DNA of 32,000 nt from NCBI GenBank assembly GCA_963738025.1, contig CAVTWA010000005.1:192502-224501 (forward strand), written 5' to 3'. The notes under the pieces were generated by a model. The model saw only the letters and a program-made list of their open reading frames with translations, was not told the DNA's origin and did not search any database. How positions within the stretch are numbered: position 1 is the first letter of the stretch; the number at the start of each line of letters is the position of its first letter. The translations under genes and the position numbers were made by a program. Source of the stretch: an uncultured Acidobacteriota bacterium. GTDB taxonomy: Bacteria; Acidobacteriota; Terriglobia; 20CM-2-55-15. This document shows positions 2,747 through 25,209 of this stretch, piece after piece.

Positions 2747-4205
2747 CTAGGAGGAAGGAAGTTCCTGTCGCTTTCTTGCGTACTTCCAACGCTCGGAGCG
2801 CACGCGCATGTATTCCACCGCTTCTTCGTAGAGCCGTTGCCGCTCATTCGAGTCCCACAGGGCGTCGCGCACAATGCGCCAGACGACTCGCGGCCTGAAA
2901 TAGTAGGAATCGTAGAACCGATTGACAGCTGCCATCATTTCTTCGCGAGGCAGCCCCGGGTATGCGATATGAGGAAGTTGATGGCCTCCACTGTCCGCTG
3001 CAGCTTCGCCGGACATGAAGTTGTTGCCGGCGAGTTGGTTGTACAGTTCCGTCCCCGCGTATGCGTGAGCGATGGACACCTGGATCGTTTCCGTATCCAG
3101 TTCTTTAGCGAAATCGAGTGTTCGCTTTATCGTTTCACGAGTTTCGCCCGGCAATCCGATGATGAAGTCACCATGGATCCGAATGCCGACCTTCTTGCAA
3201 TTCCTGGTGAATTCGCGAGCCTGTTCGACTGTCGCGCCTTTTTTGATGTTTTTCAGAATCTGGGGATCTCCCGATTCATAACCTACGATGAAAAGACGCG
3301 CGCCCGAGTCCGCCATCGCCTTCAGAGTCTCGTAGTCGCTATTCACGCGCGCCGTGCACGACCAGCGGAACTTCAGCGGCTTCAGCTTCGCACAAACATC
3401 AAGGACTCGATCTTTCCGGATGTTGAAGGTGTCATCGTCGAAGAAGAACTCCTTCGCCTGCGGGAACAGCTGCAGCGCCTGCTTTACTTCGCGCGCGACA
3501 TTCTCACTTGAACGCGTACGCCAGGCATGGCCCGATAAAGTCTGTGGCCATAGACAAAAAGTGCACATTGCCGGGCAGCCACGCGACGTATAGAAAGCAA
3601 CGTAGGGATGCAGCAGAAAAGGAACGTTGTAATTTTCAATCTTGAGGTCGCGTTTGTACACTTCCGTAGCGAAAGGCAGCTGGTCGAGATCTTCGGTTTG
3701 CAGCTGCGGCCGGGAAGGGTTCAGCCGCAGGCGGCCATTCTCCAGATAACCGGCGCCAGCAATCTCGCTCAAAGGCTTGCCCTTGGCATACTCGACGACG
3801 GCGTGATCGAACTCGCCGCTGACAATGAAATCGATTTCCGGATTGCTGATCAGACAGTCCGGCTTGATCTGTACGGGCGGCCCGACGAAGGCCACTTTCA
3901 AGCTTCGGCCTGACCTGCTTCATCTGCCGTACCATGGCAACGTCATTTGCGAATCCAACCGTCGATGTGAACAGCACCAGAAACTCATAGTCTCGAGCGA
4001 TCTGGATTGTTTCTTCGGGTGTGACATGATGCGATGGCGCATCCAGCAGCCGGCTGCCCGGCAACATCCCAGCTGGATAGCTCAGCCAGACCGGATACCA
4101 GAACGACTCGATTTCGCGGGTCGCCGGCCAGCGCGAGCTTGCGCCGCCATCAAAGTTCTTGAAACTGGGAGGATTCAACAAAAGAGTTTTCATTACGGAC
4201 GGCAT
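2747..4205 (-). pseudogene. hpnJ: B12-binding radical SAM protein HpnJ, split by an apparent +1 frameshift near 3900-3906 (true pseudogene or sequencing/assembly error)
   Basis: The N-terminal part lies in ORF 3636-4205 (M..MKTLLLNPPSFKNFDGGASSRWPATREIESFWYPVWLSYPAG...DVAMVRQMKQVRPKL). The remainder lies in ORF 2747-3901 (KVAFVGPPVQIKPD...YTSRGCPAMCTFCLWP with CxxxCxxC). The two frames join cleanly as ...RPKL/KVAFVG if one nucleotide in ccgaagCTTGaaagtg is ignored. Confidence 0.8.
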
Positions 4206-4230
4206 AAGCGATCTATTCTACGCTGGAAGT

Positions 4231-4303
4231 CTGGGGACGGCGTACTAAATTACCTGAATTGGACTTCAAGCCAGGTGATTTACTGACTTAGTGCGCGCCC
4301 CAG
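4231..4303. repeat. Degenerate copy of palindromic repeat family A (intergenic TolC-hpnJ)
   Basis: The sequence ctggggacggcgtactaaattacctgaatt...ccaggtgatttactgacttagtgcgcgccccag resembles GGGGACGGTTGCCTAAATCACCTAAATT in the copies at 9584 and 12814. The outer ctgggg/ccccag and inner cctg/cagg segments pair. It starts 1 nt after the TolC stop codon (4305-4307). Confidence 0.6.
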
Positions 4304-4304
4304 A

Positions 4305-5609
4305 TTATTGATAGATCTTCGTAAGGTCGCCGGTTGTGCTGAGAACGTCCAACTGCGCTTTCTGACGATCGTAGTCGGCATCCAGATAGGCGAGCCACTT
4401 TTCGTTTTCATCCAACCTGGCGCGCTCGATATCGCGGCTGTTGGCCCGCCCCTCCATGAAGTTCGCCTGGATGATCTTTACGTTTTCTTGAGCAACTTCC
4501 AGCTCAAGGCGTGCAACTTCGCGGGCCGCGTCGAGTTCGCGCACGCGGTAATACTGGCGTGAGGCTTCGAGTTCGAGCGTCTGGCGTTTATTGCGTAATT
4601 CCATTTCCGACGCGTTCAGTTCGCTCTTCGCGAACGCGATGTTGGCGGACCGCTGCGCACTGATCAGAGGGATTCTGATCTGGAGCCCAACGGTGAAGTT
4701 ATTCGCCTGGAACTGCCGGTAATAGTTTTGGAAGTTGTTATACCGGCCAAACACGCCGTATTCGCCCACCGCGTCGATTGTCGGCCACTTGGTCTTGATT
4801 TGACCGGCAACGAGATGTTCTTTCGCTCTGCGATCGTATTCGCTCTGGCGCAAATCGAGGCTTCTTTCGACAGCGCGATCGACAATGTCCCGTTCGCGCT
4901 CGGTTGCCTCGATAGACAGTGGCTCCGTTGCAACGTCGATGCGCTGGTCCGGAGGGATGCCCATCAGCGCAGCCAGTTGCTGTTGCAGCTGGCTTTCACG
5001 GCTTTCGAGCTGAACGATGTGCTGTTCGGTTCTCGCGGCCGCAAGCTCCGCTTTCTTGGACTCAATAGGCAGTTCGTAGCCTTCTTTCACGCGCTGTTGA
5101 GTGAAACTGAGAATTCGCGTGTTGCTTTGCCGCTGATTCCGCATCAGGTCTAAAGAATGACGTACCTTGCCAAGTTCGAGATAGGCGGAGCTCGCTTGAA
5201 GCGCAACGGAATTCCGCGTCTTTTCCAGTTCGAGCCGCTGAATTTCTTTGCGCTCCTCTGCGGCTCTTAACTGAGCCGTTTGCACTGGGTTAAACAAGGC
5301 CTGCACGTAAGAGAAATTGATAATGGAGGGTGCTGCGCCCCCCGGCGTTAAGGGAAAGCCGTAGGTATAGGCCGCTCCCGAGCCCGTATACAAATTGGGT
5401 TGAAACGCAGACTTGTTGACGCCGATTTCTCTTTCCGCGACCTCATATCGCGCCTGCGCGAGCGCAACTTCACGACTGCTGCGGAGCGCCTTGTTCACGG
5501 CATCTTTCAAGGCGACGGGTTGTAAATCCTGTGCCTGAAGCGCGCAGGGTGCGATCGCACAACAGGCGGCGCAACTTGCGAGGAACCTGACAAATCGATT
5601 TTTATTCAT
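4305..5609 (-). CDS. TolC-family outer-membrane efflux protein
   Basis: The track ORF is 4305-5675. The likely start is ATG 5609 (MNKNRFVRFLASCAACCAIAPCALQAQD, signal-peptide-like), which overlaps the permease stop as ATGAATAA. The protein is long, coiled-coil rich and shows the two-fold repeated architecture typical of OEP/TolC proteins. Confidence 0.8.
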   Translation of the reverse strand: MNKNRFVRFLASCAACCAIAPCALQAQDLQPVALKDAVNKALRSSREVALAQARYEVAEREIGVNKSAFQPNLYTGSGAAYTYGFPLTPGGAAPSIINFSYVQALFNPVQTAQLRAAEERKEIQRLELEKTRNSVALQASSAYLELGKVRHSLDLMRNQRQSNTRILSFTQQRVKEGYELPIESKKAELAAARTEQHIVQLESRESQLQQQLAALMGIPPDQRIDVATEPLSIEATERERDIVDRAVERSLDLRQSEYDRRAKEHLVAGQIKTKWPTIDAVGEYGVFGRYNNFQNYYRQFQANNFTVGLQIRIPLISAQRSANIAFAKSELNASEMELRNKRQTLELEASRQYYRVRELDAAREVARLELEVAQENVKIIQANFMEGRANSRDIERARLDENEKWLAYLDADYDRQKAQLDVLSTTGDLTKIYQ

Positions 5610-6802
5610 AACGCAGAGCTTCGGTTGGTTGCAGTTTGGCCGCGCGGCTGGCCGGCAGATATCCAAAAACAACACCGGTCATGCATGAAACAGCGAAGGC
5701 CACAACAATAGACAGGCCGGAGATCGGGATCGTCAAACCAGCCGGCATCAAAGGCCTCAAAAGGAAAGGAATCCCGAGAGCAATCAGAATTCCCAGCACG
5801 GCACCGGTTCCGCTAATGATTAACGCTTCGAGCAGAAATTGGTACAAGATTTCGCGTTTGGCTGCGCCAATCGCCTTGCGGACACCGATTTCGCGAGTAC
5901 GTTCACTGACGGTCACCAGCATGATATTCATGATGCCAACGCCGCTGATGACCAGCGTCACGGATCCAACGGCCAGCAGCACCGCGCTCACAGCCAGCGA
6001 GATATTTCTCGCCGCGTCGAGAATTGCGCTGAGGTTCTGGACGTTGTACAGAGAGCCCGAGCGATGGCGGGAGCGCAGGACATTCTCCACCCCTCGCGTT
6101 AAAGCGGGTACAGCTTCCGGCTGCGGTGCCTGAGCATAAAGGACTTTTACGGTGTCCGTTCCCGCGTAACTCTTCAACAAGCCAAACGGCACGATCAGCG
6201 ATTCGCGGGCGATCTCGGATTGGCCGAAAGTGGCGATACGTTCCTTAAAGACGCCGATGACCGTGAACCTCAATTCTCCAACCCGGATGTCCTGTCCGAC
6301 AGGATCGGTCCCTGCAAACACGATGCGCGCAAGATCCTGGGTGAGCAAGCACACCTTACTGTGGGATTGAAAATCATCACCGTCGAAATATCTTCCATCG
6401 AGGACGAGAAGGTTCCTGATCTTTTGAAAGCCTTCCGTAACAGCGACCAGCGTGACGGGGCGCTCGACGCCGCCCGGCCACCACAGCCATCTGTATGTCG
6501 TGCGTGGCAGCCACTTCCGAGGCGGCCGGTACTTCCCGCCGGATGGTTTCCATGTCGTCTATGGTTATTTCATCGCTGAGCGTGTTCGCTTGCGTGCCGG
6601 TCCGGATCAACTCCGCATACACCAGGTTTGAACCTACACCTTCTATTTGCGTGATGATGTAGTTCCTGCCGACCAGAGAAATCGTAACGACGAGCACGAT
6701 GCAGGCGCTGCCGATGACGACGCCCAGCGTTGTCAGGAATGCCTTGACCTTATTCGCACGAAGGGCATCGATCGAGATTTTCCACAGTTCGCTCTGCAGC
6801 AT
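5602..6802 (-). pseudogene. MacB/DevC-type ABC transporter permease (MacB_PCD + FtsX domain), split by an apparent +1 frameshift near 6470-6480
   Basis: The N-terminal part is in ORF 6377-6802 (MLQSELWKISIDALRANKVKAFLTTLGVVIGSACIV...ATHDIQMAVVA). After gtggtggccGggcggc the sensible reading continues in another frame (GGVERPVTLVAVTEGFQKIRNLLVLDGRYFDGDDFQSHSKV) and runs into ORF 5602-6354 (CLLTQDLA...TVSERTREIGVRKAIGA...LPASRAAKLQPTEALRYE, an FtsX signature). One extra base in the ccc/gg run restores a single protein of about 400 aa. Confidence 0.8.
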
Positions 6803-7641
6803 TAACGGCTGATGCGGGCGAGCCAGTTCATGGCGGATTTGTGTGAAGGGAAATCGCTCTTTTCAGGTACGGACGACACATACGACTTCAACAGCTGCTC
6901 AGCCCTGTTTGCATCGCTGCCCCGCAAGATAAGGACGACGGCGCGGTAGAACCCGACGCGCGGATCCCTGGAATCCACGCGGACCGCGTCATTGATTGTT
7001 CGTTCGAGATTCGTTGCGTCTTTGCGATCGGCAAAAAATTCTGCGGCCTCCATATATGGATCGATGAGGGTGGGGTGCTGATCTAAAACTGCGAGATATT
7101 CAGTTTCGGCGGGCCTCCATTGTTTTTCCGCGCGAAGGTACACTGCCCGCGCCAGCCGTCCCTCGATCGGGTCAATCGCTGCAATCGCCTCAATCTGTTG
7201 TTTGGCCTTCTCCTTGTCGCCGCCGACGATCCATGGCGCCTCGACACAATACTCCATGAGATCCCGCCGGGCTGCGATGTTGCCCGGAGCGAGCCTGACG
7301 GCGGCTTCGAACGCCTGCTTCACCTTTCTTGCCAGGAAAAAGCTGTGACTCTCTTCCGCTTTTGCACCGTAGGCGCGGCCAAGCCATCGGTTGTACTCGG
7401 CGTTTTGCGGCGCCAACTTTACTGCCAGCTCCGCCTGGTTGACGGCTTCATCGTAATTTCGCATCTCGTAGTTTGTGCGCGCCGTCCAGTAATGAAGTGA
7501 AGCATTATCGGGCGAATGCTCGAGGGCTGCGTTTAAGGTATTCAAGGCAGCTTTATAGTTGCCCGCTTCGAATTGAACGTGGGCGGATTGCGCGACGTCC
7601 TGCGCGAATAATAGCGAAAGAAGTATTGTCCCAAGAATCAT
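6802..7641 (-). CDS. Secreted tetratricopeptide-repeat (TPR) protein
   Basis: 279-aa ORF with a signal-like N-terminus (MILGTILLSLLFAQDVAQSA). It has repeated TPR-like helices (YKAALNTLNAALEHSPDNASLHYWTARTNYEMRNYDEAVNQAELAVKLAPQNAEY...). Its start overlaps the adaptor stop as ATGA (7638-7641), and its stop overlaps the permease start as TAATG at 6802. Confidence 0.65.
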   Translation of the reverse strand: MILGTILLSLLFAQDVAQSAHVQFEAGNYKAALNTLNAALEHSPDNASLHYWTARTNYEMRNYDEAVNQAELAVKLAPQNAEYNRWLGRAYGAKAEESHSFFLARKVKQAFEAAVRLAPGNIAARRDLMEYCVEAPWIVGGDKEKAKQQIEAIAAIDPIEGRLARAVYLRAEKQWRPAETEYLAVLDQHPTLIDPYMEAAEFFADRKDATNLERTINDAVRVDSRDPRVGFYRAVVLILRGSDANRAEQLLKSYVSSVPEKSDFPSHKSAMNWLARISR

Positions 7642-8876
7642 CGTTCTGTCCCAGCGACTGTCTGTCCTTCTCGCAATTCCGAATCCATCGGAAGAGCTAC
7701 CGTGTCTTGCTCCGTAATACCCCCCAGGATTTCATACGTGGTCGGATTCGAGATTCCAACCATCACTTCCCGGCTTTTGACTTTATTGTCCTCAACGACA
7801 AAGACGTAGCGTTTGGCGCCGTCGGTGCGCACTGCCGCGCGCGGTAGCGTCAGGACATTTTCGCGGTCGGCAACCCGAATTTTTACATTAACGTTCGTAT
7901 TCGGTAAAAGTTCGGCCGCCTCATTATTGACCGAGCAAAGCACTTCGCCGACATTGCGTGAGCCCCGCGTCGAGATTGTTGTAGGAAGCTGTTCGATTAC
8001 GCCCATCCATACTCGAGCCGGCAAAGCGTCCCAAGTGATTTCGACGATCTGTCCCTGTTTCAGTGAGCCGAGTTCCGGTTCGTCAATAAAAGCGCGTACT
8101 CTGGCGCGTCTGAGATCCGCCATTTCCGCGAGAGTGTCGCCCATACGGACAAACGTTCCGGAGCGCGCCGGAAGCGAATAAATCGCGCCCCCGACAGGAG
8201 CAGTGACGCCCGCGGAATTGATCTTCTGCTCCATGGATTGAATGGACTCCCGTGCCTCGTCCGCCCGCAGAGCAGCCCGTTGCGCTTGTATTTTGGAGCG
8301 GGCGGATAGTGTGTTCTTTTTTTCTTCCAGCAGGTGTTTTTCCGCTTCGGCTTTTTCCAGTGCGATTCTGTTCTGGTCCTGTTCCTGACGTGTTGCGGCC
8401 TGACTCTGTATCAGCCGGCTGAGAGCTTCTCTATCTCGAGTGAGTTGCGTTATCTGTCCGATTGTTTTGGCCAGATCGCTCTGGATCTGCGCCAGATCGT
8501 CAGGTGAGCCACCCTGAAGTGCGGTGTTTTGCTCTTCCTGCGCACCAATGAGCTGATCTCGCATGCGAGCCAGTTCGCTTTTGACATCCGTGGCGTCAAG
8601 CTCGAGCAGCGGGTCTCCAGCTTTTACCATTTGTCCCTCTCTGACGTAGACCGCTGAGATGCGTGTCGAAAGCTGGGCTTGAATGACATGCGGCTCGATC
8701 GGTTCGACTTTTCCATTTCCCGTCGTCCAGGAGCTGAGTTCCTGACGAGCGGCATGGGTGACGGATATCCTGAGAGGCCGATCGCGCCCAGGGCCCGTTG
8801 CCGCCACAAACACCAGTACGGCTGCTCCTGCAACCAGGAGAAACACCCAGATCGATTTGGTAAGCGTCGTCGCCAT
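7638..8876 (-). CDS. HlyD/MacA-type periplasmic adaptor (membrane fusion protein)
   Basis: The track ORF starts at a TTG (8882); the ATG at 8876 gives MATTLTKSIWVFLLVAGAAVLVF (N-terminal anchor). It has a lipoyl-like motif (VKAGDPLLELD), a long coiled-coil segment (QSDLAKTIGQITQLTRDREAL...LEKAEAEKHLLEEKK) and a C-terminal beta-barrel region, which is the usual MFP layout. Confidence 0.8.
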   Translation of the reverse strand: MATTLTKSIWVFLLVAGAAVLVFVAATGPGRDRPLRISVTHAARQELSSWTTGNGKVEPIEPHVIQAQLSTRISAVYVREGQMVKAGDPLLELDATDVKSELARMRDQLIGAQEEQNTALQGGSPDDLAQIQSDLAKTIGQITQLTRDREALSRLIQSQAATRQEQDQNRIALEKAEAEKHLLEEKKNTLSARSKIQAQRAALRADEARESIQSMEQKINSAGVTAPVGGAIYSLPARSGTFVRMGDTLAEMADLRRARVRAFIDEPELGSLKQGQIVEITWDALPARVWMGVIEQLPTTISTRGSRNVGEVLCSVNNEAAELLPNTNVNVKIRVADRENVLTLPRAAVRTDGAKRYVFVVEDNKVKSREVMVGISNPTTYEILGGITEQDTVALPMDSELREGQTVAGTER

Positions 8877-8882
8877 CAGCAA

Positions 8883-9563
8883 TCAAGCCATCTTAACAAA
8901 CTGAAGTCCTGCATCCTTCCAGCGCGGCAACCAGAACGCCAGAGCGTCCAACATATGGCTCCGGTTGGTGTTAGACGTCCGATGATCGCCGTCGTGAAGA
9001 AGAATAATGTCTCCTGTCCGAACCTTTTGCAGCCGCCGCCGCATGTCGTGGCCGGACTGAGGCTTCCAGTCGCGTCCGTTAACCGACCACATCACGATTT
9101 TGGAGAAGCCAGCGCGTTGCGCTGCCCGGAAAAACTGCGGCCCCCGGAAACCGTAGGGAGGCCGGACGCACTCCGTGCGTTTCCCGGTCGCCTGGAAAAC
9201 AGCTTCATCGCAGCGGTTCAATTCGTCGACGATCCGGCGCGTACTGAAGAACACCAGGCTGCGATGCCCGAACGTATGATTCCCGATGGCGTGATTTCGA
9301 GCGGTAATCTCTGACGCCAGGTTCGGATATTGGCGGACGTACTTCCCCAGAACAAAGAATGTTGCCTGGATCTGGTGCTTCTCCAGAAGCGCCAGAATGC
9401 GAGGAGTCACTTGCGGGTTCGGCCCGTCATCAAACGTCAGGGCGCAGCTGCTACCCGCCCGCCGCACGACCTTGCCGAATATCTGGGATCTCGGGTGAAA
9501 CGTTCCCCAGGCCGCCAGCCCTCCACCAGCCACCGCCGGCAGTATGATCTCCGCTGCATTCAC
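8883..9563 (-). CDS. Polysaccharide deacetylase family protein (CE4 / NodB homology domain)
   Basis: 226-aa ORF with a GTG start at 9563. It carries NodB motifs: ALTFDDGPNP (TFDDG), HAIGNHTFGH (HxxxH) and RPPYG. Its stop lies 6 nt upstream of the adaptor ATG. Confidence 0.8.
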   Translation of the reverse strand: MNAAEIILPAVAGGGLAAWGTFHPRSQIFGKVVRRAGSSCALTFDDGPNPQVTPRILALLEKHQIQATFFVLGKYVRQYPNLASEITARNHAIGNHTFGHRSLVFFSTRRIVDELNRCDEAVFQATGKRTECVRPPYGFRGPQFFRAAQRAGFSKIVMWSVNGRDWKPQSGHDMRRRLQKVRTGDIILLHDGDHRTSNTNRSHMLDALAFWLPRWKDAGLQFVKMA

Positions 9564-9583
9564 ACTGGCATTGTAAAGCCGTT

Positions 9584-9668
9584 CCGATAAATTCGGGGAC
9601 GGTTGCCTAAATCACCTAAATTGCGGAGCAATTTAGGTGATTTAGGCAACCGTCCCCGAATTTATCGG
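9584..9668. repeat. Palindromic repeat family A, perfect copy (41-nt arms, 3-nt centre)
   Basis: The left arm CCGATAAATTCGGGGACGGTTGCCTAAATCACCTAAATTGC (9584-9624) is the exact reverse complement of the right arm (9628-9668), with centre gga. The right arm contains the hpnE stop codon (9662-9664). It fills the gap between hpnE and the deacetylase gene. Confidence 0.95.
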
Positions 9669-11032
9669 GCGAACCACCGCGCCAGGCCGCTCGGGGGCAG
9701 ATCTGGTTTAACCAGGGATACCCGCCGACCCTCCATATCGAGAATGGCTTCCGCGGCCCGGTAACCACTTCGCACAGCGCCTTCCATGGTTGCCGGCCAG
9801 CCCGTCTGTGTCCAATCACCCGCGAGCAACAGATTACGAACTGATGTGGTCGTCTGGGGACGCCAACGGTCACAATCTGGTTCGGGCGAAAACGTGGCCG
9901 TATTTTCTCGAATGACTACTGAACGCAGCAGCCGGGCCTTGCGAACTGCTGGCAGCAATTCACCCAATTCGCGCAGGCAAACGTCGACGACATCTTGCTG
10001 CGAACGATCCGACAAACTACGTGAGGCGCTGATCACAATCTGCAGGTATTCGCCGGCCCTTTTGTTAAAAATCCACTGGATCGTCTGGTCCACGGATGTC
10101 AGAAACGGTTCTGTCATCACGCTGCCTGAGAACCACAAGTGAACACCGGTTATCGGTGACATGCGCAGCTGCTGGACTTTCGCGAACAGGGGGTCACGCT
10201 GCAGATGTTCGGGAAGGAGTTTCATCAGCCTGTCGGCTGTTACGGCAGCGACATAATAGTCGGCTTCCAGAACGCTACCGTCATCGAGCTTGATACCGGA
10301 CACTATTTCCTTAGCGTGGATTTCGGCTATTCCGCACCGCATTCGAACCTGCCCTCCGTTTTGACAGATCCGGTCCCCGCCGGAAGCGTAAAGATCCGCC
10401 AGCGGAACGGATGGAATGCCCATGGCAAATCCCTTCCGGTTGGCTAAAAAGGCTTTCCAGAACACGTCGATACCGTAGCCGGCATCAATGTGATCGAGTT
10501 CCTCGTTCAGCGCGCTGACGAGAACTGTCCGCCAGAAGCGATCAATCGCTTGACGTGTCTGTTTCTGGCGGCGCAGCCAGTCCATCATACTGAGCGTCTC
10601 AGGGAGGCGGGGACGGCCTCCGCTCAGTAGAATCCGCATCAGCGCGCTTGCGATTCCGAGTTTGTCGCGCCAGCTCAGTAGCGAAAATCTAGCGAATGAA
10701 GCGGACAAATGGAATGGTGCGGGAAGAGCAGCGGGCCGCATTTCGGCGCGACGGCCCGTGGAATCCGCGAAGAACAAGGTTTCGTTATATGTAATTTTCG
10801 CCAAGACGCCGATGCGGAAGTAGAAATCCTCCAGGTTCGTGCAGCAGCGAAGGGTGACATGCTGACAGTTGTCGATGTGCTCGTCCCCTTGAAGGACATA
10901 AGACGTTGCCCGGCCACCCAATCGCGGAGAGCGCTCGAACAAAGAAATCCGGCATCCCGCATCTGCTAATGCTGTAGCTGCAGAGAGGCCGGCCAGGCCG
11001 CCTCCGATGACGATTACGTGTGGCGGGGGCAC
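9662..11032 (-). CDS. hpnE: Hydroxysqualene dehydroxylase / squalene-associated FAD-dependent desaturase HpnE
   Basis: The track ORF 9662-11326 has an N-terminal extension lying inside hpnD. The plausible start is GTG 11032 (VPPPHVIVIGGGLAGLSAATALADAGCRISLFERSPRLGGRA, a GxGxxG FAD fold). It has an amine-oxidase-like C-terminus (LLLAGDWTQTGWPATMEGAVRSG) and follows hpnC-hpnD. Confidence 0.85.
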   Translation of the reverse strand: MPPPHVIVIGGGLAGLSAATALADAGCRISLFERSPRLGGRATSYVLQGDEHIDNCQHVTLRCCTNLEDFYFRIGVLAKITYNETLFFADSTGRRAEMRPAALPAPFHLSASFARFSLLSWRDKLGIASALMRILLSGGRPRLPETLSMMDWLRRQKQTRQAIDRFWRTVLVSALNEELDHIDAGYGIDVFWKAFLANRKGFAMGIPSVPLADLYASGGDRICQNGGQVRMRCGIAEIHAKEIVSGIKLDDGSVLEADYYVAAVTADRLMKLLPEHLQRDPLFAKVQQLRMSPITGVHLWFSGSVMTEPFLTSVDQTIQWIFNKRAGEYLQIVISASRSLSDRSQQDVVDVCLRELGELLPAVRKARLLRSVVIRENTATFSPEPDCDRWRPQTTTSVRNLLLAGDWTQTGWPATMEGAVRSGYRAAEAILDMEGRRVSLVKPDLPPSGLARWFAR

Positions 11033-11904
11033 AGTCCCGATTTCCAGAGGCCGGCGCCTGCGCGCAGCATAATCCAGGCTTTTGCCAGTCCGGACAATCC
11101 GGGATGAGGCTGAGCAAGCACGTCGTAATGAATCGATTCTATTTTTGCGAGAATTCCACTGTAAATTCTCATCAACGTCCAGAGAGCTGCCTGGCTGTCG
11201 CGATCGATCAACTGCAACAACTGGACTCCCTCGTCGTATAACCCCCAGGCACGATCGGCCTCGAATCGCATCAGTTGTACGAATGCGGGGCTGGCAACGG
11301 CCCGCGAGAGGTCTTGAGAGCTGCAACCGAACCGCTTTAGATCTTCCTGAGGAAGATAAATTCGCCCCATCGAATAATCTTCCGCGATATCCCGAAGAAT
11401 GTTCGTTAATTGAAAAGCGATTCCAAGCTTCGGCGCCAGATCGAGAGCTTTACGATCTGAAAATCCGAAGACGTGCACACAACACAAGCCAACCGTTCCG
11501 GCTACGCAATAGCAGTAGCGGCTCAAATCTTCGAAGGTCTCATAGGTACGGATGCCGAGATCCATCTCGGTCCCAGACATCAGATCGTGAAAATACTGTG
11601 GAGGAATCTTATACCGCTGGATCGTATCGTGGAACGCAATCAAGAGCTGGTTATTGTTGTAGTTTCCCTGAAGCGCCTGGTCCAGAGCATTGCGCCATGC
11701 CTTTAATCCTTTGCCCTTTTCGCTTACTTCGCCTTCCGCGTCGGAGATGTCATCGGCTCGCCGCATGAACGCATAGAGCGCGCACAGCGCGTCGCGCTTC
11801 GCGGCAGGCAGCAAGGCGAAACCGTAATAAAAATTACGCGCTGCGGCCCACGCGAGGTTGCGACAATGCTCGTAAGAAGCTGCCAATTCGGTAGCGTTTG
11901 GCAT
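11014..11904 (-). CDS. hpnD: Presqualene diphosphate synthase HpnD (squalene/phytoene synthase family)
   Basis: 296-aa ORF with ATG at 11904. It has Asp-rich motifs (YAFMRRADDISD and NILRDIAEDYSMGRIYLP) and the YCYCVAGTVG motif typical of trans-isoprenyl diphosphate synthase head-to-head enzymes. Confidence 0.85.
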   Translation of the reverse strand: MPNATELAASYEHCRNLAWAAARNFYYGFALLPAAKRDALCALYAFMRRADDISDAEGEVSEKGKGLKAWRNALDQALQGNYNNNQLLIAFHDTIQRYKIPPQYFHDLMSGTEMDLGIRTYETFEDLSRYCYCVAGTVGLCCVHVFGFSDRKALDLAPKLGIAFQLTNILRDIAEDYSMGRIYLPQEDLKRFGCSSQDLSRAVASPAFVQLMRFEADRAWGLYDEGVQLLQLIDRDSQAALWTLMRIYSGILAKIESIHYDVLAQPHPGLSGLAKAWIMLRAGAGLWKSGLCPRHT

Positions 11905-12784
11905 AAGTTAGACCCAAAAGACGAAGCTTGGCCCTGCCGCTGAGGGCCGGCCGGATTCGCAGAGTGTTGTAGCCAATGGATTCGATCGCGTCAAGTACGG
12001 CGAGGCCACCCTGGCTGAACAACTCGATATCGACGCGCAGTCCGCCGTCGACTTTTCCCACTAACGGCAAACCTTGTGCAAACAGTGCGCGTGTGCGGAA
12101 GACGAGTTCGCGCATCAATACCTCATACCGCTCGTCGAATTCTTTGTTGAACAGGTCGGTTTCCGTCAATCCATATGCATGCAGCAGATCGAGCGGAATG
12201 TAGATACGGTCCTTATCCAGATCCCGTGCCACATCCTGCCAGAAGTTTGCCAGTTGAAGCGCAGTGCAGGTGAAATCCGATAGTGTCTGCCGCTCCTGGT
12301 CGCGATATCCACCTAAATAGAGCACAAGACGGCCGACCGGGTTTGCCGAGTACCGGCAATAGTCTGCCACCGCGTCCCAATTGGCGTAGCGACGCGTTGT
12401 TTGATCGCGGCGGAACGCCGTAAGCAGATCTTCAAATGGTTGTTTCGGAATGCTGAAAGAGTCGATTGTACGGTGGAGTGCAACGAACACTGCATGGTCT
12501 GGAGAGCCGTCATAGCACCGTTGCAGCCCGTCTCCCCACCAGTTCAGCAGCTCCATGGCGGCTTTCGGATCGGAAATTTCGTCAGCGAGATCATCCGCCC
12601 ACCGGCAATATGCGTAAACGTTGTAAAAGTGTTGCCGGAGATGCCGCGGCAACAGGTAGCTGGCGACCGTGAAATTTTCGTAGTGATGCTTAGCGAGCCA
12701 GCGGGTGTACTCCTGCGCCGACTTCAGCGACGCCCCGGATGGCGGCAAGCGGCGGGCAATCTCGAAATCTGGAGGTAGTTTCAT
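11834..12784 (-). CDS. hpnC: Hydroxysqualene synthase HpnC (squalene/phytoene synthase family)
   Basis: The track ORF begins at TTG 12793; the ATG at 12784 gives MKLPPDFEIARRL... It has motifs YAYCRWADDLADE, YCRYSANPVGRL and NFWQDVARDLDKDRIYIP. Its 3' end overlaps the hpnD start by 71 nt. Confidence 0.85.
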   Translation of the reverse strand: MKLPPDFEIARRLPPSGASLKSAQEYTRWLAKHHYENFTVASYLLPRHLRQHFYNVYAYCRWADDLADEISDPKAAMELLNWWGDGLQRCYDGSPDHAVFVALHRTIDSFSIPKQPFEDLLTAFRRDQTTRRYANWDAVADYCRYSANPVGRLVLYLGGYRDQERQTLSDFTCTALQLANFWQDVARDLDKDRIYIPLDLLHAYGLTETDLFNKEFDERYEVLMRELVFRTRALFAQGLPLVGKVDGGLRVDIELFSQGGLAVLDAIESIGYNTLRIRPALSGRAKLRLLGLTYAKRYRIGSFLRALSQPRVGRSA

Positions 12785-12813
12785 TTCACGCAACCAAAGA
12801 ATTTACCCATGGC

Positions 12814-12888
12814 AATTTGGGGACGGTTGCCTAAATGACCTAAATTGCGGTGCAAATTTAGGTCATTCAGGCAACCGTCCCCGAATTT
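12814..12888. repeat. Palindromic repeat family A, imperfect copy (intergenic ADH-hpnC)
   Basis: The sequence is aatttGGGGACGGTTGCCTAAATGACCTAAATTGCggtGCAAATTTAGGTCATTCAGGCAACCGTCCCCgaattt. It keeps the same core as 9584-9668 with a few substitutions and one indel. The C:G pair of copy 1 (9613/9639) is G:C here (12837/12864). The element ends at the stop codon of the upstream dehydrogenase (12888-12890). Confidence 0.9.
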
Positions 12889-13922
12889 CAGGGCATGACG
12901 GCGACCTTGAGCTGTCCGTTCCGGTTCTTCATATGTTCGAAGACCTGCGGCAGTTCGCTCAACGGAACTTCCCCTGTCACAAAATCCTTCGCGCTGACTT
13001 CACGGCGAGCGATGAGATCGAGAGCTTCGCGTATGAAACGCGGTGTGTGGTGGAAGCTGGATTTGATCGTAATTTCCGAATAATGCACTGCCGAGGCTTC
13101 CAACTCGACCTTGGTTCCACGGGGACATCCGCCAAACAAGTTTATTGCACCCCCGCGCCGGACCATCTGCAGAGCCCATTGCCAGGTCATTGCCGAGCCC
13201 ACGGCCTCAATGACCGAGTCAGCGCCGAACCGCCGGTAGGTGAAGTCCCGAACAGCCGAAACCGGATCGTCGATTTTCGAGATATCCCAGGCTGCGGAAG
13301 CTCCCAGCCGTTCGGCAGCCTTGATTTGACTGCTGCGCTTGCCTAACGCGATTACGTGCGCGCCACGGCTGGACAGCACACGGACGAACTGTAAACCAAT
13401 CGGGCCGCACCCGATGACGACGGCGGTGTCACCAGACTGGATGCCCGTTTCGTCGACAGCCCGGAGCACGCACGCGAGCGGTTCGACGAGAGCGGCTTCA
13501 ATAAAGTCGAGGTGATGTGGTATTTCAATCAGATTCTCGCGCACGATCCGTGCAGGGATCAATGCGTATTCGGCATAAGCGCCGTTGTTGAAAACCAGAT
13601 CTTCGCAGAGATTCGCCTTATCTTTGCGGCAGAAGAAACACTCGTTGCAAGGAGCCGAATTTGCGGCTACAACCCGCATGCCCAGCGGGTACTTGTCGCG
13701 GACGGCATGACCCGCGTCGGCAACGATACCGGAAAGTTCATGTCCGAAGATTGCCGGCGGCACGATCATCCGGGCGTGATAGCCCTGCTTCCAGACTTTG
13801 AAATCCGTTCCGCAGGTCAGAGCCACTTTGACCTGGACCAGAAGGTCCTCCGCTCCGACAGTCGGAACCGCCACCTTTTGAATTTTTAGATCTTCTCGAC
13901 CGTGCAGGACGGCCGCCATCAT
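12888..13922 (-). CDS. Zinc-dependent medium-chain alcohol/polyol dehydrogenase (MDR family), copy 2
   Basis: The track ORF 12888-14096 overlaps the upstream gene. The likely start is ATG 13922 (MMAAVLHGREDLKIQKVAVP...). It has the catalytic-zinc motifs LTCGTD and FGHELSG, the structural-zinc motif CNECFFCRKDKANLC (CxxCxxCx7C) and the Rossmann motif GCGPIG. Confidence 0.85.
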   Translation of the reverse strand: MMAAVLHGREDLKIQKVAVPTVGAEDLLVQVKVALTCGTDFKVWKQGYHARMIVPPAIFGHELSGIVADAGHAVRDKYPLGMRVVAANSAPCNECFFCRKDKANLCEDLVFNNGAYAEYALIPARIVRENLIEIPHHLDFIEAALVEPLACVLRAVDETGIQSGDTAVVIGCGPIGLQFVRVLSSRGAHVIALGKRSSQIKAAERLGASAAWDISKIDDPVSAVRDFTYRRFGADSVIEAVGSAMTWQWALQMVRRGGAINLFGGCPRGTKVELEASAVHYSEITIKSSFHHTPRFIREALDLIARREVSAKDFVTGEVPLSELPQVFEHMKNRNGQLKVAVMP

Positions 13923-13942
13923 GTGCCCGTTGCGAGCAGTCC

Positions 13943-15043
13943 TCACGGCAGAATCACCAGCTTCAGAGAACTGTCTGCGGGATGGGATGCCATCGCAAAA
14001 GCCTGCTCGACCTCGTTGAGTGAAAAACGATGAGTAACAAGTTCGTTCAGAAGAACGTGATTGTCGAAAACAAGGCGCGCCGATTCCTCCTGACAATCAA
14101 CTGCTGCACTGTAGCTGCCAAGAATCTCTTTTTCTTCCACTCCGACGGCCGCTCCTGGAAATTGAATCTGCGTTACCGGATCGTTTTGCGCAAATAAGAG
14201 TACCCGTCCACCGGGCCGTGCAAGGTCCAGTGCGACGGGAACGAGCTTCGCATCCGCCACCGCCAGCAGTACGGCATCGGCCCCTATACCACTGCGCCGC
14301 TTGCGAATTTCTGCGGCGGCATTCGAAGCCGCAGGATCCAGACACGCTTCGGCGCCGAAACGCACACTCATCTGCCGGCGAAAGGGCAGCGGGTCGCTGG
14401 CAAATACCGTAGCGCCCGCTGCGCGGGCTAAAAACGTCAGTAAAAGACCCACAGGGCCTTGTCCGATGACAAAGACGACCTCTCCTGGCGCGACACGCGC
14501 TTTCCGGACTGCTTTCAGGCAGGTGTTTACTGGTTCGACGAAGATGGCTTCCTGAAAGCTCACATCGTCCGGTATCGTCACCACACCGCGATTGACGATA
14601 TGCGGCATTACCCGCACGTATTCGGCAAAGCCGCCGCCATTCGGATCAAACCCGGCTGTGACGCCGGTATTTTTGTATTGAGTACACTGAGAGAACAATT
14701 GTCGATCGCAGTAAAAGCAATTTTCACATGGAATGTGATGAAAGCTGATCACGCGATCACCAATGGACCACCGCTCAACACCCGCTCCAACCTGCACGAT
14801 GCTGCCGGCGATCTCGTGGCCAAAAATCTGCGGTGGTTTGACAAGGTCATGCCGCACTTTCTTGACGTCTGTTCCGCAGATGCCGCAAGCCGCAACCCGA
14901 ATGAGAATCTCACCCGTTCCAACCACGGGCACCGGCACGGTTTCGAGGCCGATCCGGCCTTTGCCGCGATATACGCCCGCCCGCATTTCGTTCGGAATCA
15001 GAACCGGGGATTCGGGTGGCGCTGTCTGCACTCGAGTACTCAT
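13943..15043 (-). CDS. Zinc-dependent medium-chain alcohol/polyol dehydrogenase (MDR family), copy 1
   Basis: 366-aa ORF with motifs ACGICGTD, FGHEIAG, CENCFYCDRQLFSQC (CxxCxxCx7C) and GQGPVG. Its ATG (15043-15041) overlaps the hpnG stop (15042-15040) as ATGA. Confidence 0.85.
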   Translation of the reverse strand: MSTRVQTAPPESPVLIPNEMRAGVYRGKGRIGLETVPVPVVGTGEILIRVAACGICGTDVKKVRHDLVKPPQIFGHEIAGSIVQVGAGVERWSIGDRVISFHHIPCENCFYCDRQLFSQCTQYKNTGVTAGFDPNGGGFAEYVRVMPHIVNRGVVTIPDDVSFQEAIFVEPVNTCLKAVRKARVAPGEVVFVIGQGPVGLLLTFLARAAGATVFASDPLPFRRQMSVRFGAEACLDPAASNAAAEIRKRRSGIGADAVLLAVADAKLVPVALDLARPGGRVLLFAQNDPVTQIQFPGAAVGVEEKEILGSYSAAVDCQEESARLVFDNHVLLNELVTHRFSLNEVEQAFAMASHPADSSLKLVILP

Positions 15044-15750
15044 CGCAATATCGGCTCCGCCGCAATCCGATAACTCTTTTCATTCGACATGAGAAATTTC
15101 ACATAGCGATCCAGAAAACCCGCCAGGTTGCGGATTGCTGCAGAACTGCCGACGCCGAACCTGACGAAATCCGGCAAACGCGCCGGGTGCTTTAATAATT
15201 CCGTGATCATGCTTATCCATGCCAATTCTCCGCGATCGGTTACGGTCTTGCTGAAGTCGATCGGAAGCTTTTGCTCCGGGGAATCCGAAATCGTCCGGAT
15301 TGCAACAGCCGGGACGCCGGCACGCTGTGCTTCGGTGAGCACGTGGAAGCTTTCCATGTCCACAGCGTCGGCCGCCTGAGCGATTTCCGCCCGTTCGGTT
15401 GCGGAATTTGCGATAGCGGCTGAAGTGAAGAAAAAATCCAAGGGTTTTGCGCCACAACGAACTGCAGCATCGATCAGACCTCCGTCTCCAGGAATGACCG
15501 TCTTTTTGCCTGCAGCTCTGACGCCCCGAGCGACGGTGATCGTGCCGACGCGGTTTTCACTTTTCAGGCTGCCCGCCAGGCCGGATGCAATGCACACATC
15601 GACACCGCGAGCGAGGGCTTGCCGGAGTTCGACTGGCGAGCGGCGCATTCCGATACCTGTTAAAACCACTTGAATGTCTTCAGTCAGTTCTGCAGGTCCG
15701 CGCCAGTCGCGCATCTCCGATCGAACCGCGAACGTTACTAAAATCTTCAT
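15040..15750 (-). CDS. hpnG: Hopanoid-associated phosphorylase/nucleosidase HpnG (PNP/UDP family)
   Basis: The track ORF starts at TTG 15765; the ATG at 15750 gives MKILVTFAVRSEM... It shows PNP_UDP-like segments (VCIASGLAGSL, DAVDMESFHV, VAIRTISD). It sits between hpnA and the dehydrogenases, downstream of hpnH. Confidence 0.7.
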   Translation of the reverse strand: MKILVTFAVRSEMRDWRGPAELTEDIQVVLTGIGMRRSPVELRQALARGVDVCIASGLAGSLKSENRVGTITVARGVRAAGKKTVIPGDGGLIDAAVRCGAKPLDFFFTSAAIANSATERAEIAQAADAVDMESFHVLTEAQRAGVPAVAIRTISDSPEQKLPIDFSKTVTDRGELAWISMITELLKHPARLPDFVRFGVGSSAAIRNLAGFLDRYVKFLMSNEKSYRIAAEPILR

Positions 15751-15771
15751 GCGAGTCTTTTTCAACCTGGC

Positions 15772-16782
15772 TCAGGCTGCCCCGCGATTTGCGCCACGCG
15801 TGACGTAGCCATTATCGACATACCAGCGCGCTGCGCGCTCTAAAGCAGCGTCCACGCTGCCGGCTGAGAAGCCAAGTTCGCGCTGGGCGAGCGAACAATC
15901 GACAAACATTTTGTGCCGTGACATGCGAACACCTTCCAGAGGAATCCGGGGTTCGCGCCCCGTTAACGAGCAGAATATGTTTTCTGCAAAGCCCGCGGCC
16001 AGTGCAGCCGCGTACGGCATCTTTAGACGCGGAGCACGGCGGTTGGTGGCTGCAGCGAGCGAATCCAGAATCTGCTTCAGGCTCATGTTCCTGCCGCCGA
16101 GGATGTACCGTTGTCCAATGCGGCCGTGCTGGAGCGCCTGCCAATGGCCTGCCGCCACGTCCTCAACGGCGACGATGTTCATACCCGTATCGACATACGC
16201 GGGCATGCGACCGTTTAAAAAGTCTAGGATAATGCGACCGGTTGGTGTGGGCTTCCAATCGCAAGGTCCTACGGGCGTTGTCGGATTGACGACGACAGCA
16301 GGAAAACCCCTGGCCGCGGCTTCCAGGACGGCTTCTTCGGCCAGCAGTTTGGATTTCTTGTAGTGGCCGATCATGTCGTCGACAGTCGCCTTTGTCCTTT
16401 CGTCCGGCAGACTCTGTGAGTGCGGGACTGCTATCGTCCCGACCGTGCTGGTGTATATGAACCGCTCAACTCCGGCACTGCGGGCGGCCGCGATCAGATT
16501 GTTTGTACCCAGAAGGTTGCTCTCGTAAAGTTCATTGGCATCTCTGGACCACAGGCGATAGTCGGCTGCCACATGAAACACATGGCTGACGCCCTTGAGC
16601 GCCTGATCCAGAGAAGACTGGTTGCGCAGGTCTCCTTCGAACGCTTCAACAGGTAAATCCCGAATGAAACGGCGTTCACTTGTGCGACGAACGAGAACGC
16701 GGACGTCCCTTGTTTTCTCAACAAGCAAGCGCGTCACATGCAATCCGACAAATCCCGTCGCACCGGTGACTAATGTCGCCAT
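15772..16782 (-). CDS. hpnA: Hopanoid-associated NAD-dependent sugar epimerase/reductase HpnA (SDR, extended family)
   Basis: The track ORF is 15772-16833. The likely start is ATG 16782 (MATLVTGATGFVGLHV, a GxxGxxG motif), which overlaps the hpnH stop as ATGA. It has the YxxxK motif (HYKKSK) and resembles dihydroflavonol-reductase-like SDRs. Confidence 0.8.
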   Translation of the reverse strand: MATLVTGATGFVGLHVTRLLVEKTRDVRVLVRRTSERRFIRDLPVEAFEGDLRNQSSLDQALKGVSHVFHVAADYRLWSRDANELYESNLLGTNNLIAAARSAGVERFIYTSTVGTIAVPHSQSLPDERTKATVDDMIGHYKKSKLLAEEAVLEAAARGFPAVVVNPTTPVGPCDWKPTPTGRIILDFLNGRMPAYVDTGMNIVAVEDVAAGHWQALQHGRIGQRYILGGRNMSLKQILDSLAAATNRRAPRLKMPYAAALAAGFAENIFCSLTGREPRIPLEGVRMSRHKMFVDCSLAQRELGFSAGSVDAALERAARWYVDNGYVTRGANRGAA

Positions 16783-17819
16783 CAGGCAGTGACGCTCCGG
16801 GGGCGCATCTTCGCTGGACTGGATAACTGCCATTTCAGCAGCTTCCAGCTGTCTCCCAACTTCCGGTTTGCTCCCAGCACGGCAGACGGTTCGTACCCCG
16901 CGTGGACCATACAGTCGGCGCAGCGTGGATCGCGACCATGGCCGTATTTTTCCCAGGGAGTCTTGTCGATCAGGTCCTTGAATGACGAGTGGTGCTTGTC
17001 CGTCATCAGGTAGCAGGGCCCCTTCCAGCCGCGCGGGTTGTAGGTTGGATTACCCCACGCCGTGCACATCATGTCGCGCTCACCGGCAAGGAATTCCAGA
17101 TAGATCGGCGACGTCATGAGCTGAAAGTGTCCGAGCAGTTCGCGCGCCTGGCGGAACTTTTCGCGAATGTCGTCGCGCGACATGAAGATTTCTTTCGATT
17201 GCACTGCGGCATACGAATACGCAGGCGAAACCATGAATCCGTCAACGCCCAGGCCCGACAGGTATTCGAATAGTTGGCGGATTTCCTTCAAGTCGGTTTC
17301 TTTGAAAATGGTCGTGTTGGTACAAACCAGGAAACCGGCTTCCTTCGCTGCCTTGATTCCTTCAATCGCCAGCTGAAAAACCCCTTCCCGCTCGACGCAC
17401 ATGTCATGCGTTTTTTCGAGACCATCGAGGTGCACGTTGAAGAACAGCCGCGACGAGGGTTTGAACTCGTGCAGGCGTTTCTTAAGAAACATTCCATGCG
17501 TGCACAAATAGATGTGCTTTTTGCGGCCCAATAACTCACTCACAAGACGCCCGAGTTCGGGGTAAATCATGGGTTCGCCGCCGCAAATCGAAACGATGGG
17601 CGCGCCGCATTCCTCAGCTGCAGCAAGGCACTGCTCAACGGAAAGCTTTTCTTTGATTGTGTCGGCATATTCACGGATGCGACCGCAGCCGGTGCACGTC
17701 AGATTGCACGCGTGCAGGGGCTCGAGCATCATCACCAGAGGAAACTTGTCGACGCCGCGTAGCCTTTTGCCAGCGATGTACTTGGACATGCTGGTTGTCA
17801 TAGTCAGTGGAAATCTCAC
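16782..17819 (-). CDS. hpnH: Adenosylhopane synthase HpnH (radical SAM)
   Basis: 345-aa ORF with radical SAM motif LEPLHACNLTCTGCGRI (CxxxCxxC) and a C-terminal segment WGNPTYNPRGWKGPCYLM...DPRCADCMVHAGYE typical of HpnH. The GTG at 17819 overlaps the shc stop by 1 nt; alternative ATG starts are at 17801 and 17789. Confidence 0.9.
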   Translation of the reverse strand: MRFPLTMTTSMSKYIAGKRLRGVDKFPLVMMLEPLHACNLTCTGCGRIREYADTIKEKLSVEQCLAAAEECGAPIVSICGGEPMIYPELGRLVSELLGRKKHIYLCTHGMFLKKRLHEFKPSSRLFFNVHLDGLEKTHDMCVEREGVFQLAIEGIKAAKEAGFLVCTNTTIFKETDLKEIRQLFEYLSGLGVDGFMVSPAYSYAAVQSKEIFMSRDDIREKFRQARELLGHFQLMTSPIYLEFLAGERDMMCTAWGNPTYNPRGWKGPCYLMTDKHHSSFKDLIDKTPWEKYGHGRDPRCADCMVHAGYEPSAVLGANRKLGDSWKLLKWQLSSPAKMRPRSVTA

Positions 17820-19720: not shown

Positions 19721-19729
19721 TTTTAGGTG

Positions 19730-20710
19730 TTAAGAACCGACACGTTCGAATTTGTCCAGTGGCGCCGGTAAAGGAAAATGTACGTTCTCTTCGATGAGTT
19801 CCACTTCTTCAATTCTGGTAAAGCCTCGCTGCCGCAGGCTTTCCACGACCTGCTGGACTAAAATTTCGGGAGTAGAAGCACCGGCCGTGACCCCGACATT
19901 CTCGCAATCGGCAAGCCATTCGGCTTGAATGTCTCTGGCACTTGCGATCAAGTGCGCCGCGGTACCCTTTCCGCGCGCTACCTCGACAAGGCGGTTCGAA
20001 TTCGAGCTGTTCTCCGCGCCCACCACGAGGATCAGGTTCGCCCGTTCGGCAAGCGCCTTGACGGCAGTCTGACGATTCTGGGTCGCATAGCAAATGTCGG
20101 AACTTGCAGGGGAAATGATCGAAGGAAAGCGTTGCTTTAAACGATCGACAATCGCCTGCGCGTCGTCGAGACTCAAGGTGGTCTGAGTGGCGTAGATCAC
20201 GCGGTCCGCTTGAACGTTTTCAAGCGCATCGACGTCATCGACGCTGGATACGACGTGAATGTGATTTGGCGCCTCACCGAATGTCCCGATCACTTCGTCA
20301 TGATTCCGGTGACCAATCAGAATGATGCTGTAGCCTTCTTTGGCGTACCGGACGACTTCGATATGCACTTTTGTCACAAGCGGGCAGGTCGCATCGATCA
20401 CCGACAACCGGCGCCGGTCCGCGTCGTCCCGCACATCGGGGGCAACGCCGTGCGCGCTGAAAATGGTGACCGCGCCGTCCGGCACTTCTTTCAGGTCTTC
20501 GACGAAAACGGCTCCCCGGGCTGCCAGTTCATCGACTACAAACCGGTTGTGGACGATTTCCTTCCGTACGTAAACCGGTGCGCCGAGCCTTTCCAGCGCT
20601 ATTTCGACAATATCGATTGCTCGAATAACACCGGCGCAAAAGCCTCTCGGTTTTGGAAGTAATACAGTTTTAGCATGCTCCGGCATCAACTCTCCCGCGC
20701 GCAAACTCAT
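19730..20710 (-). CDS. ispH: 4-hydroxy-3-methylbut-2-enyl diphosphate reductase (IspH/LytB)
   Basis: 326-aa ORF with ATG at 20710. The three cluster-binding Cys contexts are present (RGFCAGV, DATCPLVTKVH, SDICYATQNRQ), as are the SAHGV and VVGAENSSNSNRL motifs. Confidence 0.95.
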   Translation of the reverse strand: MSLRAGELMPEHAKTVLLPKPRGFCAGVIRAIDIVEIALERLGAPVYVRKEIVHNRFVVDELAARGAVFVEDLKEVPDGAVTIFSAHGVAPDVRDDADRRRLSVIDATCPLVTKVHIEVVRYAKEGYSIILIGHRNHDEVIGTFGEAPNHIHVVSSVDDVDALENVQADRVIYATQTTLSLDDAQAIVDRLKQRFPSIISPASSDICYATQNRQTAVKALAERANLILVVGAENSSNSNRLVEVARGKGTAAHLIASARDIQAEWLADCENVGVTAGASTPEILVQQVVESLRQRGFTRIEEVELIEENVHFPLPAPLDKFERVGS

Positions 20711-22233: not shown

Positions 22234-22347
22234 GTGAACCACGACCAATCCTGCCGAAAAGATAAGCCACGAATTGAACGAATTAAACGAATTTGAATCC
22301 GTTTAATCCGTTCAATCCGTGGCTTATCTCTCCGATTCGGTAAAATC
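22234..22347. repeat. Hairpin repeat family B, copy 1 (upstream of kinase gene)
   Basis: The sequence is gtgaacca...cctgccgaaaAGATAAGCCACGAATTGAACGAATTAAACGaatttgaatcCGTTTAATCCGTTCAATCCGTGGCTTATCTctcc...aaaatc. The 30-nt arms (22260-22289 and 22300-22329) are complementary except for two A/C positions. Each arm is built from three 9-nt units (ACGAATTnA). Confidence 0.9.
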
Positions 22348-25105: not shown

Positions 25106-25209
25106 GTGAACCAACCTGCCGGAAAAGATAAGCCACGAATTGAACGAATTAAACGAATTTGAATCGGTTAAATCCGTTCCGTGGCTTATCTCTTCCCGTC
25201 TGGAAAATC
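25106..25209. repeat. Hairpin repeat family B, copy 2 (downstream of kinase gene), right arm degraded
   Basis: The sequence is gtgaaccaacctgccggaaaAGATAAGCCACGAATTGAACGAATTAAACGaatttgaatcGGTTAAATCCGTTCCGTGGCTTATCTcttcc...aaaatc. The left arm and loop are identical to copy 1. The right arm carries substitutions and a 4-nt deletion. It has the same orientation as copy 1. Confidence 0.85.

Follow-up and report, generated by a model that had tools for sequence, protein, structure and literature searches.

Three palindromes that lie between the genes of a hopanoid cluster in an uncultured Terriglobia (a soil acidobacterium) are probably, at a probability of roughly 0.8, copies of a non-autonomous, REPIN-like family of mobile hairpins that inserted late in this lineage and are ordinary passengers in the cluster. 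The palindromes were located at 4231-4303 (copy 1), 9584-9668 (copy 2) and 12814-12888 (copy 3) of the stretch of 32,000 nt that was analysed (the window; G000:C5:192502-224501), exactly where an initial annotation of this DNA had placed them. The genome that holds the window (G000) comprises 9.15 Mb in 75 contigs, with 56% G+C, and was compared with eight congeners (G001-G008, at ~66-72% DNA identity), making nine same-genus genomes in all, and with 32 other relatives. We refer to the hairpin family as family A.

In addition to confirming the positions of the three elements, we were able to define their structure. Copies 2 and 3 are near-perfect hairpins. The arms of copy 2 are 41 nt long and perfectly complementary, with a 3-nt centre, and fold in the mRNA sense at -76 kcal/mol. 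Its core runs from AATTC (9590-9594) through the GGGGACGGTTGCCTAAATCACCTAAATT arm, which begins at 9595, the centre and the inverted arm (to 9657) to GAATT (9658-9662), and the palindrome extends a further 6 nt beyond this core at either end (CCGATA/TATCGG). Two other copies in the genome, at C5:712566 and C4:551352, are 100% identical to it over this 73-nt core. Copy 3 has 33-nt arms that are 94% complementary, with two arm mismatches (fold, -54 kcal/mol), and consists of AATTT (12814-12818), arms at 12819-12846 and 12855-12882, and GAATT (12883-12887). Copy 1 is a diverged relative and is much weaker than the other two. Its left arm, GGGGAC-GGCGTAC-TAAATTACCTGAATT, has 24 of 28 positions in common with the family, the central heptamer GGCGTAC replacing GGTTGCC, and its right arm has decayed and carries an indel. 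The arm-profile search of the G000 genome missed this copy. Its heptamer type is unique in G000 and nearer to the arm types of G002 and G008, and copy 1, although a homologue, belongs to a sister or older subfamily.

The reported adjacency of each element to a stop codon was also correct. On the minus strand, the TAA of the TolC-like outer-membrane efflux gene (4305-4307) is 1 nt from copy 1, the TAA of hpnE (9662-9664) lies within the outer palindrome of copy 2 and has one T in common with its terminal AATT, and the TGA of the second zinc alcohol dehydrogenase gene (ADH2; 12888-12890) directly abuts the GAATT of copy 3. In G000, hpnE ends on this element-derived TAA and is one codon shorter than in the congeners. 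The elements had been described as occupying three larger intergenic gaps; these gaps do exist (99, 98 and 94 nt), but they are large because the elements, themselves 73-85 nt, lie inside them. Similarly, the compensatory change between copies 2 and 3 (C:G at 9613/9639 versus G:C at 12837/12864) is real, whereas the T:G wobble assigned to copy 1 (4251/4277) holds on the plus strand only; because the genes of the cluster lie on the minus strand, the pair is a C:A mismatch in the mRNA. The suspicion that the elements generate spurious open reading frames was well founded. Plus-strand open reading frames run across the elements, at 12705-13346 (+) and 3825-4286 (+) of the window, because the arm can be read through without a stop in one frame.

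The two canonical copies belong to a substantial population. The family-A arm core gave 156 matches in G000, against five for the reversed control pattern, and the matches correspond to 66 full hairpins and 21 partial copies (~87 in total). The consensus is (T/A)AATTC-GGGGACGGTTGCC-TRAATYACCTRAATT, followed by the centre and the inverse. An element is an inverted dimer of a ~33-nt arm, (T/A)AATTC-GGGGAC-GGTTGCC-TRAATYACCTRAATT, around a short or ~20-nt variable centre, and the two size classes (~63 and ~76 nt, measured between the outer runs of G and of C) differ in the centre only. Truncated forms are also present, for example a minimal GGGGACGG-TTG-CCGTCCCC hairpin. The family is narrowly distributed: it was found in two of the nine same-genus genomes (G000 and G007) and in none of the 32 other relatives. 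Among the matches listed in a wider genome collection, most were chance 17-mers, and real elements were seen in SMAG_U9530, very likely G007 itself, and in two other acidobacterial metagenome-assembled genomes. The element in SMAG_U9530 (L061, DATFXZ010000617.1, ~5960-6080) has a second palindrome (GGGGACAAGGGGTCAGACCCC...) nested in its centre. Within G000, elements do not cluster more than randomly (nine gaps of <10 kb, 7.4 expected), and the presence of two canonical copies within 20.7 kb departs only mildly from expectation (Poisson P = 0.017).

Placement relative to genes follows a clear rule across the genome. Genes were called with a hexamer-model caller (8,328 genes; a few genes missed, starts approximate), and 53 of the 65 full copies share no more than 20 nt with any called gene, although the genome is 86% coding. 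The spacers that hold full copies are co-directional in 39 cases, convergent in 16 and divergent in 10 (n = 65), roughly like the background. The 3' end of a gene adjoins an element at 71 junctions, where a median of 4 nt separates the stop from the element; at 20 of these the stop overlaps the element by 1-2 nt (a T plus the AA of AATTC, giving TAA), and at six the CCTAAAT of the element ends the gene, which extends 21 nt into it. Downstream starts are further away (median 44 nt), and of 38 copies in co-directional spacers, 32 lie closer to the stop than to the next start (p = 2e-5). As fewer than 60 nt are left in 27 of the 39 co-directional spacers once the element is subtracted, an intra-operonic position is the norm for family A. 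A genome-wide count against stop codons was one of the checks proposed in the initial annotation, and its outcome is that the association is real and the copies are not randomly placed. The three hopanoid copies obey this family-wide rule, irrespective of gene function.

A further set of observations concerns the sequence beyond the AATTC ends. The flanks are more complementary than expected by chance (mean 2.8 versus 0.56 nt), and this complementarity is mostly site-specific. At C3:553926 and C3:496307, the element sits at the apex of a terminator-like hairpin in G000, and the orthologous spacers in G006, G007 and G008 hold the same hairpin uninterrupted, with the same outer stem and T-run. 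Long older hairpins of this kind surround only 5-10 of 63 copies, and folding energies of the whole flanks showed no significant overall shift (p = 0.16). In the hopanoid cluster, where we denote the three element-bearing junctions J1-J3 (J2, hpnE/deacetylase; J3, ADH2/hpnC), there is no such hairpin at J3 and 6 nt at J2.

Comparison with relatives indicates when the elements arrived. All eight congeners have the same cluster gene order, and the elements are absent from the corresponding junctions. The J3 spacer is ~1-9 nt in G001, G003, G004, G005 and G006, and the J2 spacer is 12-14 nt in G001-G004. Of 80 metagenomic acidobacterial loci, 67 also have ADH next to hpnC; the spacers there measure 10-304 nt, and no element is present in any of them. 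This metagenome scan with HpnC yielded no close strain (best, 74% amino-acid identity) and hence no precise empty site. Because the congeners keep the order without the elements, and mostly with tight junctions, the elements are late, lineage-specific insertions and not assembly scars. The proposal that they might be MITE-like (miniature inverted-repeat transposable element) footprints of modular assembly is contradicted by the same observations. The idea that elements persist simply where room already existed was rejected, as the ancestral spacers at J2 and J3 are no larger than those at other junctions. Within the modules, overlaps of -53, -19 and -74 nt are kept in most or all genomes, and those internal to hpnCDE (-19 and -53 nt) are identical in most congeners.

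The same junctions have received unrelated DNA in other members of the genus. At J2, G005 carries a 328-nt insert (L019, G005:C259, ~1002-1334), G006 a 404-nt insert (L018, G006:C7, ~4728-5133) and G007 a 6.8-kb block between the deacetylase gene and hpnE (L017, G007:C33, 3745-10462). This block, which encodes a DUF6798 protein, an extracytoplasmic function (ECF) sigma factor, a Ser/Thr kinase, a DUF3047 protein and unknown genes, splits the hopanoid cluster at the exact junction occupied by copy 2 in G000. At J3, G008 has an unrelated insert of ~250 nt (L015, G008:C359, ~933-1179) and G007 a different, family-B-like hairpin. J1-J3 are the junctions that tolerate insertion across the genus, and this is the kernel of truth in the description of the elements as marking module boundaries. 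Some features of these inserts are worth recording in their own right. The G005 insert is bordered by a diverged duplication of ~55 nt from the 3' end of hpnE, and the G006 J2 and G008 J3 inserts have in common the motif TTGATGGCGC(A/C)GCCACCC, which suggests another repeat family. Family B (GATAAGCCACGAATTGAACGAATTAAACG...) is a second hairpin repeat of the window, found at 22244-22334 and 25110-25209, where it brackets the gene for an 880-aa Ser/Thr kinase; with ~525 genome-wide matches to its arm (at two mismatches or fewer), it is far commoner than family A.

A pointer to the mode of mobilization is the association of these arms with Y1 transposase genes in three congeners. The Y1 gene of G007 (L166 1144-1923) is bordered by family-A arms, at 1099 and 1123 and in a hairpin at 1931-2020. 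Homologous arms flank the Y1 genes of G002 (TAATTC-GGGGAC-AGACGTA-TAAATCACC; L167 1122(+) and 2623(-)) and G005 (AATTC-GGGGTC-AGACGGG-TGAAT; L171 1505(+) and 2094(-)). The encoded proteins are 44-63% identical to one another and contain the HUH and Tyr motifs, and their best NCBIfam match is the REP-associated tyrosine transposase (RAYT) model NF047646, at 50-60 bits, below the cut-off of 80. The arm heptamers are species-specific, and each variant forms a dispersed hairpin family; half-sites of this genus-wide arm family number 110 in G000, 108 in G002, 85 in G005, 46 in G008 and 25 in G007, with none in G006. The GGGGWSAS motif known from related systems is matched at 8/8 positions by GGGGACAG of G002 and by GGGGTCAG of G005 and G008. 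Two solo arms that precede an ATG were considered as possible transposase starts and rejected: they border a histidine-kinase-like gene and an apparent oligopeptide-transporter gene, as read from the translations.

Several observations weigh against the interpretation of family A as a mobile population. Its own GGGGACGG matches GGGGWSAS at 7/8 positions. No Y1 gene with family-A arms was found in G000, where the single Pfam Y1_Tnp gene (C6:437678-438510; C6:437899; L025 1277-2109) is bordered instead by arms of another family, family C (GGGACAGGTCACTTTTT); we therefore infer the mobilization of family A in G000 from its relatives. We saw no transposition event, no excision product and no strain-level polymorphism, and we could define no target-site duplication for the family. 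Finally, the unrelated inserts at J2 and J3 in four congeners could mean selection for uncoupling the modules, and not mere tolerance. Family C itself has 61 exact core sites in G000 and forms ~75-nt hairpins elsewhere in the genome.

Taking these points together with the evidence above, we propose that the arms act as terminal inverted repeats (TIRs) of a unit of the TIRYT/TIRtron type, mobilized by a RAYT-like Y1 (HUH) tyrosine transposase. Copies would spread within the genome and persist almost exclusively in intergenic DNA right after stop codons, some of them settling in the apex of pre-existing terminator hairpins. The hopanoid copies would have inserted late in this lineage at three junctions that lack overlapping, translationally coupled genes, and the impression of module punctuation would mirror the places at which an insertion can be tolerated. 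Once transcribed as part of the polycistronic mRNA, the perfect stems of 33-41 bp should form strong stem-loops, which might be substrates of RNase III, block 3' exonucleases or obstruct ribosomes that terminate within 15 nt. By analogy with REP sequences and Correia elements, a regulatory side-effect (an RNase III site, protection of 3' ends or stalling of ribosomes at stops) may follow, but if the modules came to be expressed differently, this would be incidental.

An alternative is that the hairpins are selected intercistronic RNA elements, through which the stability or processing of the mRNA would differ from one hopanoid module to the next or transcription would partly terminate between them, much as the initial annotation had proposed in likening them to repetitive extragenic palindromic (REP) sequences and bacterial interspersed mosaic elements (BIMEs). 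Part of that description stands, as these are genome-wide extragenic palindromes, associated with stops, whose stems covary. The covariation check that had been suggested gave a strong result across the genomic copies, with double-sided changes at 14 of 33 stem pairs and 96.8% of cells paired, values that none of 500 shuffles reached. The great stability of the mRNA-sense stems, the position of the elements 0-1 nt from stop codons and the presence of other inserts at J2 or J3 in G005-G008 could be read in the same way. Furthermore, REP sequences of E. coli stabilize upstream mRNA, and where a stop codon lies within 15 nt of them they depress translation. However, strong covariation is equally expected of a DNA palindrome and is by itself no sign of RNA function. 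The two arms of one element agree far more than the arms of different elements, and such symmetry could reflect the mode of copying, template-switch correction or symmetric recognition by a protein. When stem mismatches are read in the mRNA sense in co-directional copies (26 mismatches, giving low power), G:U and A:C are found 14 and 12 times, respectively (p = 0.85), and the supposed wobble of copy 1 is itself of the second kind. No U-tract follows the stems, no terminator-like site was found at the three elements and no promoter-like site in the stems, and the elements have no match in Rfam; some other family-A copies do lie in older terminator hairpins with the T-run retained. The elements are missing from these junctions in 8/8 congeners that keep the same cluster, and the placement rule holds genome-wide whatever the function of the gene. 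Nothing points specifically to RNA-level selection; purposeful punctuation of the modules is unsupported, and we consider this explanation unlikely.

A broader version of the same idea would have an orphan hairpin population co-opted as RNase III or stability punctuation that uncouples squalene synthesis, export and the side-chain modules, in a genus where RAYT-like transposases co-diversify with species-specific hairpins that insert by structure, at terminator apices and stops. We regard this as quite improbable. It is more improbable still, and by far, that the elements are classical MITEs derived from an insertion sequence (IS) with a DDE transposase, or scars from the joining of once separate modules into one cluster. 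Their long TIRs, small size, two size classes that differ only at the centre and truncated derivatives would all suit a MITE, and the AATT found at either end, which is self-complementary, might represent a 4-bp duplication. However, no full-length IS with these arms was found in the genome, where solo arms border ordinary genes; the flanks are inverted (complementary) and not direct repeats, and in relatives it is Y1 transposase genes that bear the arms. The assembly-scar version is largely refuted by the conserved cluster order and by the adjacency of ADH and hpnC described above.

The gene content of the cluster, assigned with Pfam, provides the setting for the three insertions. Upstream of copy 3 (12888-20710, minus strand) lie genes for two zinc alcohol dehydrogenases, a PNP_UDP protein (HpnG-like), an epimerase (HpnA-like), a radical SAM protein with DUF3463 (HpnH-like), a squalene-hopene cyclase and LytB/IspH. 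Copies 2 and 3 flank hpnE (9662-11032), hpnD (11014-11886) and hpnC (11834 to ~12784), which together occupy 9662-12793 on the minus strand, so that hpnCDE is indeed bracketed on both sides. Between copies 1 and 2 (4305-9563, minus strand) are genes for TolC, a split pair of FtsX and MacB_PCD proteins, a TPR protein, HlyD and a polysaccharide deacetylase, and beyond TolC the order continues with an unknown gene, a radical SAM gene, two EamA half-transporters, GT21 and YdjC. The division into four coherent modules is broadly as first described, except that the polysaccharide deacetylase lies in what had been called the exporter module. The MacB/LolC-type permease is split at 5602-6802 of the window into a 141-aa MacB_PCD protein and a 250-aa PCD plus FtsX protein, with a stop and a 22-nt gap between them. 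As the same gap of 18-21 nt recurs in every congener examined, this split is a conserved arrangement and not a sequencing error.

These findings have several implications. Automated annotation would be misled by the elements, which create false open reading frames, extend proteins falsely at the N or C terminus and provide stop codons, as in hpnE. For the hopanoid operon, they mark the junctions at which it tolerates interruption; the punctuation of the cluster is recent and lineage-specific, and should therefore not be taken for part of the conserved regulatory design. The uninterrupted terminator hairpins of the congeners are empty sites and show directly that some copies land at the apices of such structures. 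More generally, the REPIN/RAYT-like ('TIRYT') picture can be extended to uncultured Terriglobia, with matched pairs of transposase and arms in three species.

The closest known system is that of the TIRYT genes, RAYT-like genes that lie between long TIRs in which a GGGGWSAS motif occurs. One group of them is specific to Acidobacteria, and their TIRs are also found as families of repeats (Di Nocera, De Gregorio & Rocco, 2013, BMC Genomics 14:522; PMC3733652). As in that system, we find Y1 genes between long inverted repeats (in G007, G002 and G005), repeats that begin with a GGGGWSAS-type motif and arms that are also dispersed, moderately abundant and often dimeric (66 dimers and 21 partial copies in G000; 46-108 half-sites in G002, G005 and G008). 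Family A differs in its motif, GGGGACGG, which matches at 7/8 positions, and in having no cognate gene that we could find in G000, and neither species-specific arm variants across a genus nor insertion into a terminator apex is mentioned in the passages of that report considered here. Family A also resembles the REPIN-RAYT systems of Pseudomonas and Enterobacteria, where extragenic, hairpin-forming inverted doublets occur at tens to hundreds per genome, in lineage-specific populations and together with a Y1 transposase of low copy number (Bertels & Rainey, 2011, PMC3116915; Bertels et al., 2017, PMC5581495). In contrast to those systems, a single family-A arm is no palindrome (-3.3 kcal/mol versus -3.75 +/- 2.1 for shuffles), neither a GTAG nor a CGTC tag occurs at the termini, which read AATTC-GGGGAC, and the Y1 proteins score under the NCBIfam RAYT cut-off. 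Because the single arm is not palindromic and carries neither tag, family A acts like a REPIN population but is no classical REP. With the REP sequences and BIMEs of E. coli it has in common an extragenic position, mostly downstream of genes and often co-transcribed, although it lacks the BIME mosaic organization and its stems (33-41 bp) are far longer. The Correia elements of Neisseria are ~100-nt elements with TIRs, co-transcribed with their neighbours and cleaved by RNase III. They differ from family A in having TA duplications and show no sequence similarity to it, and no Y1 transposase is known to be associated with them. Set against these systems, family A is a REPIN-like dimer of arms, a new family of a kind that is already known.

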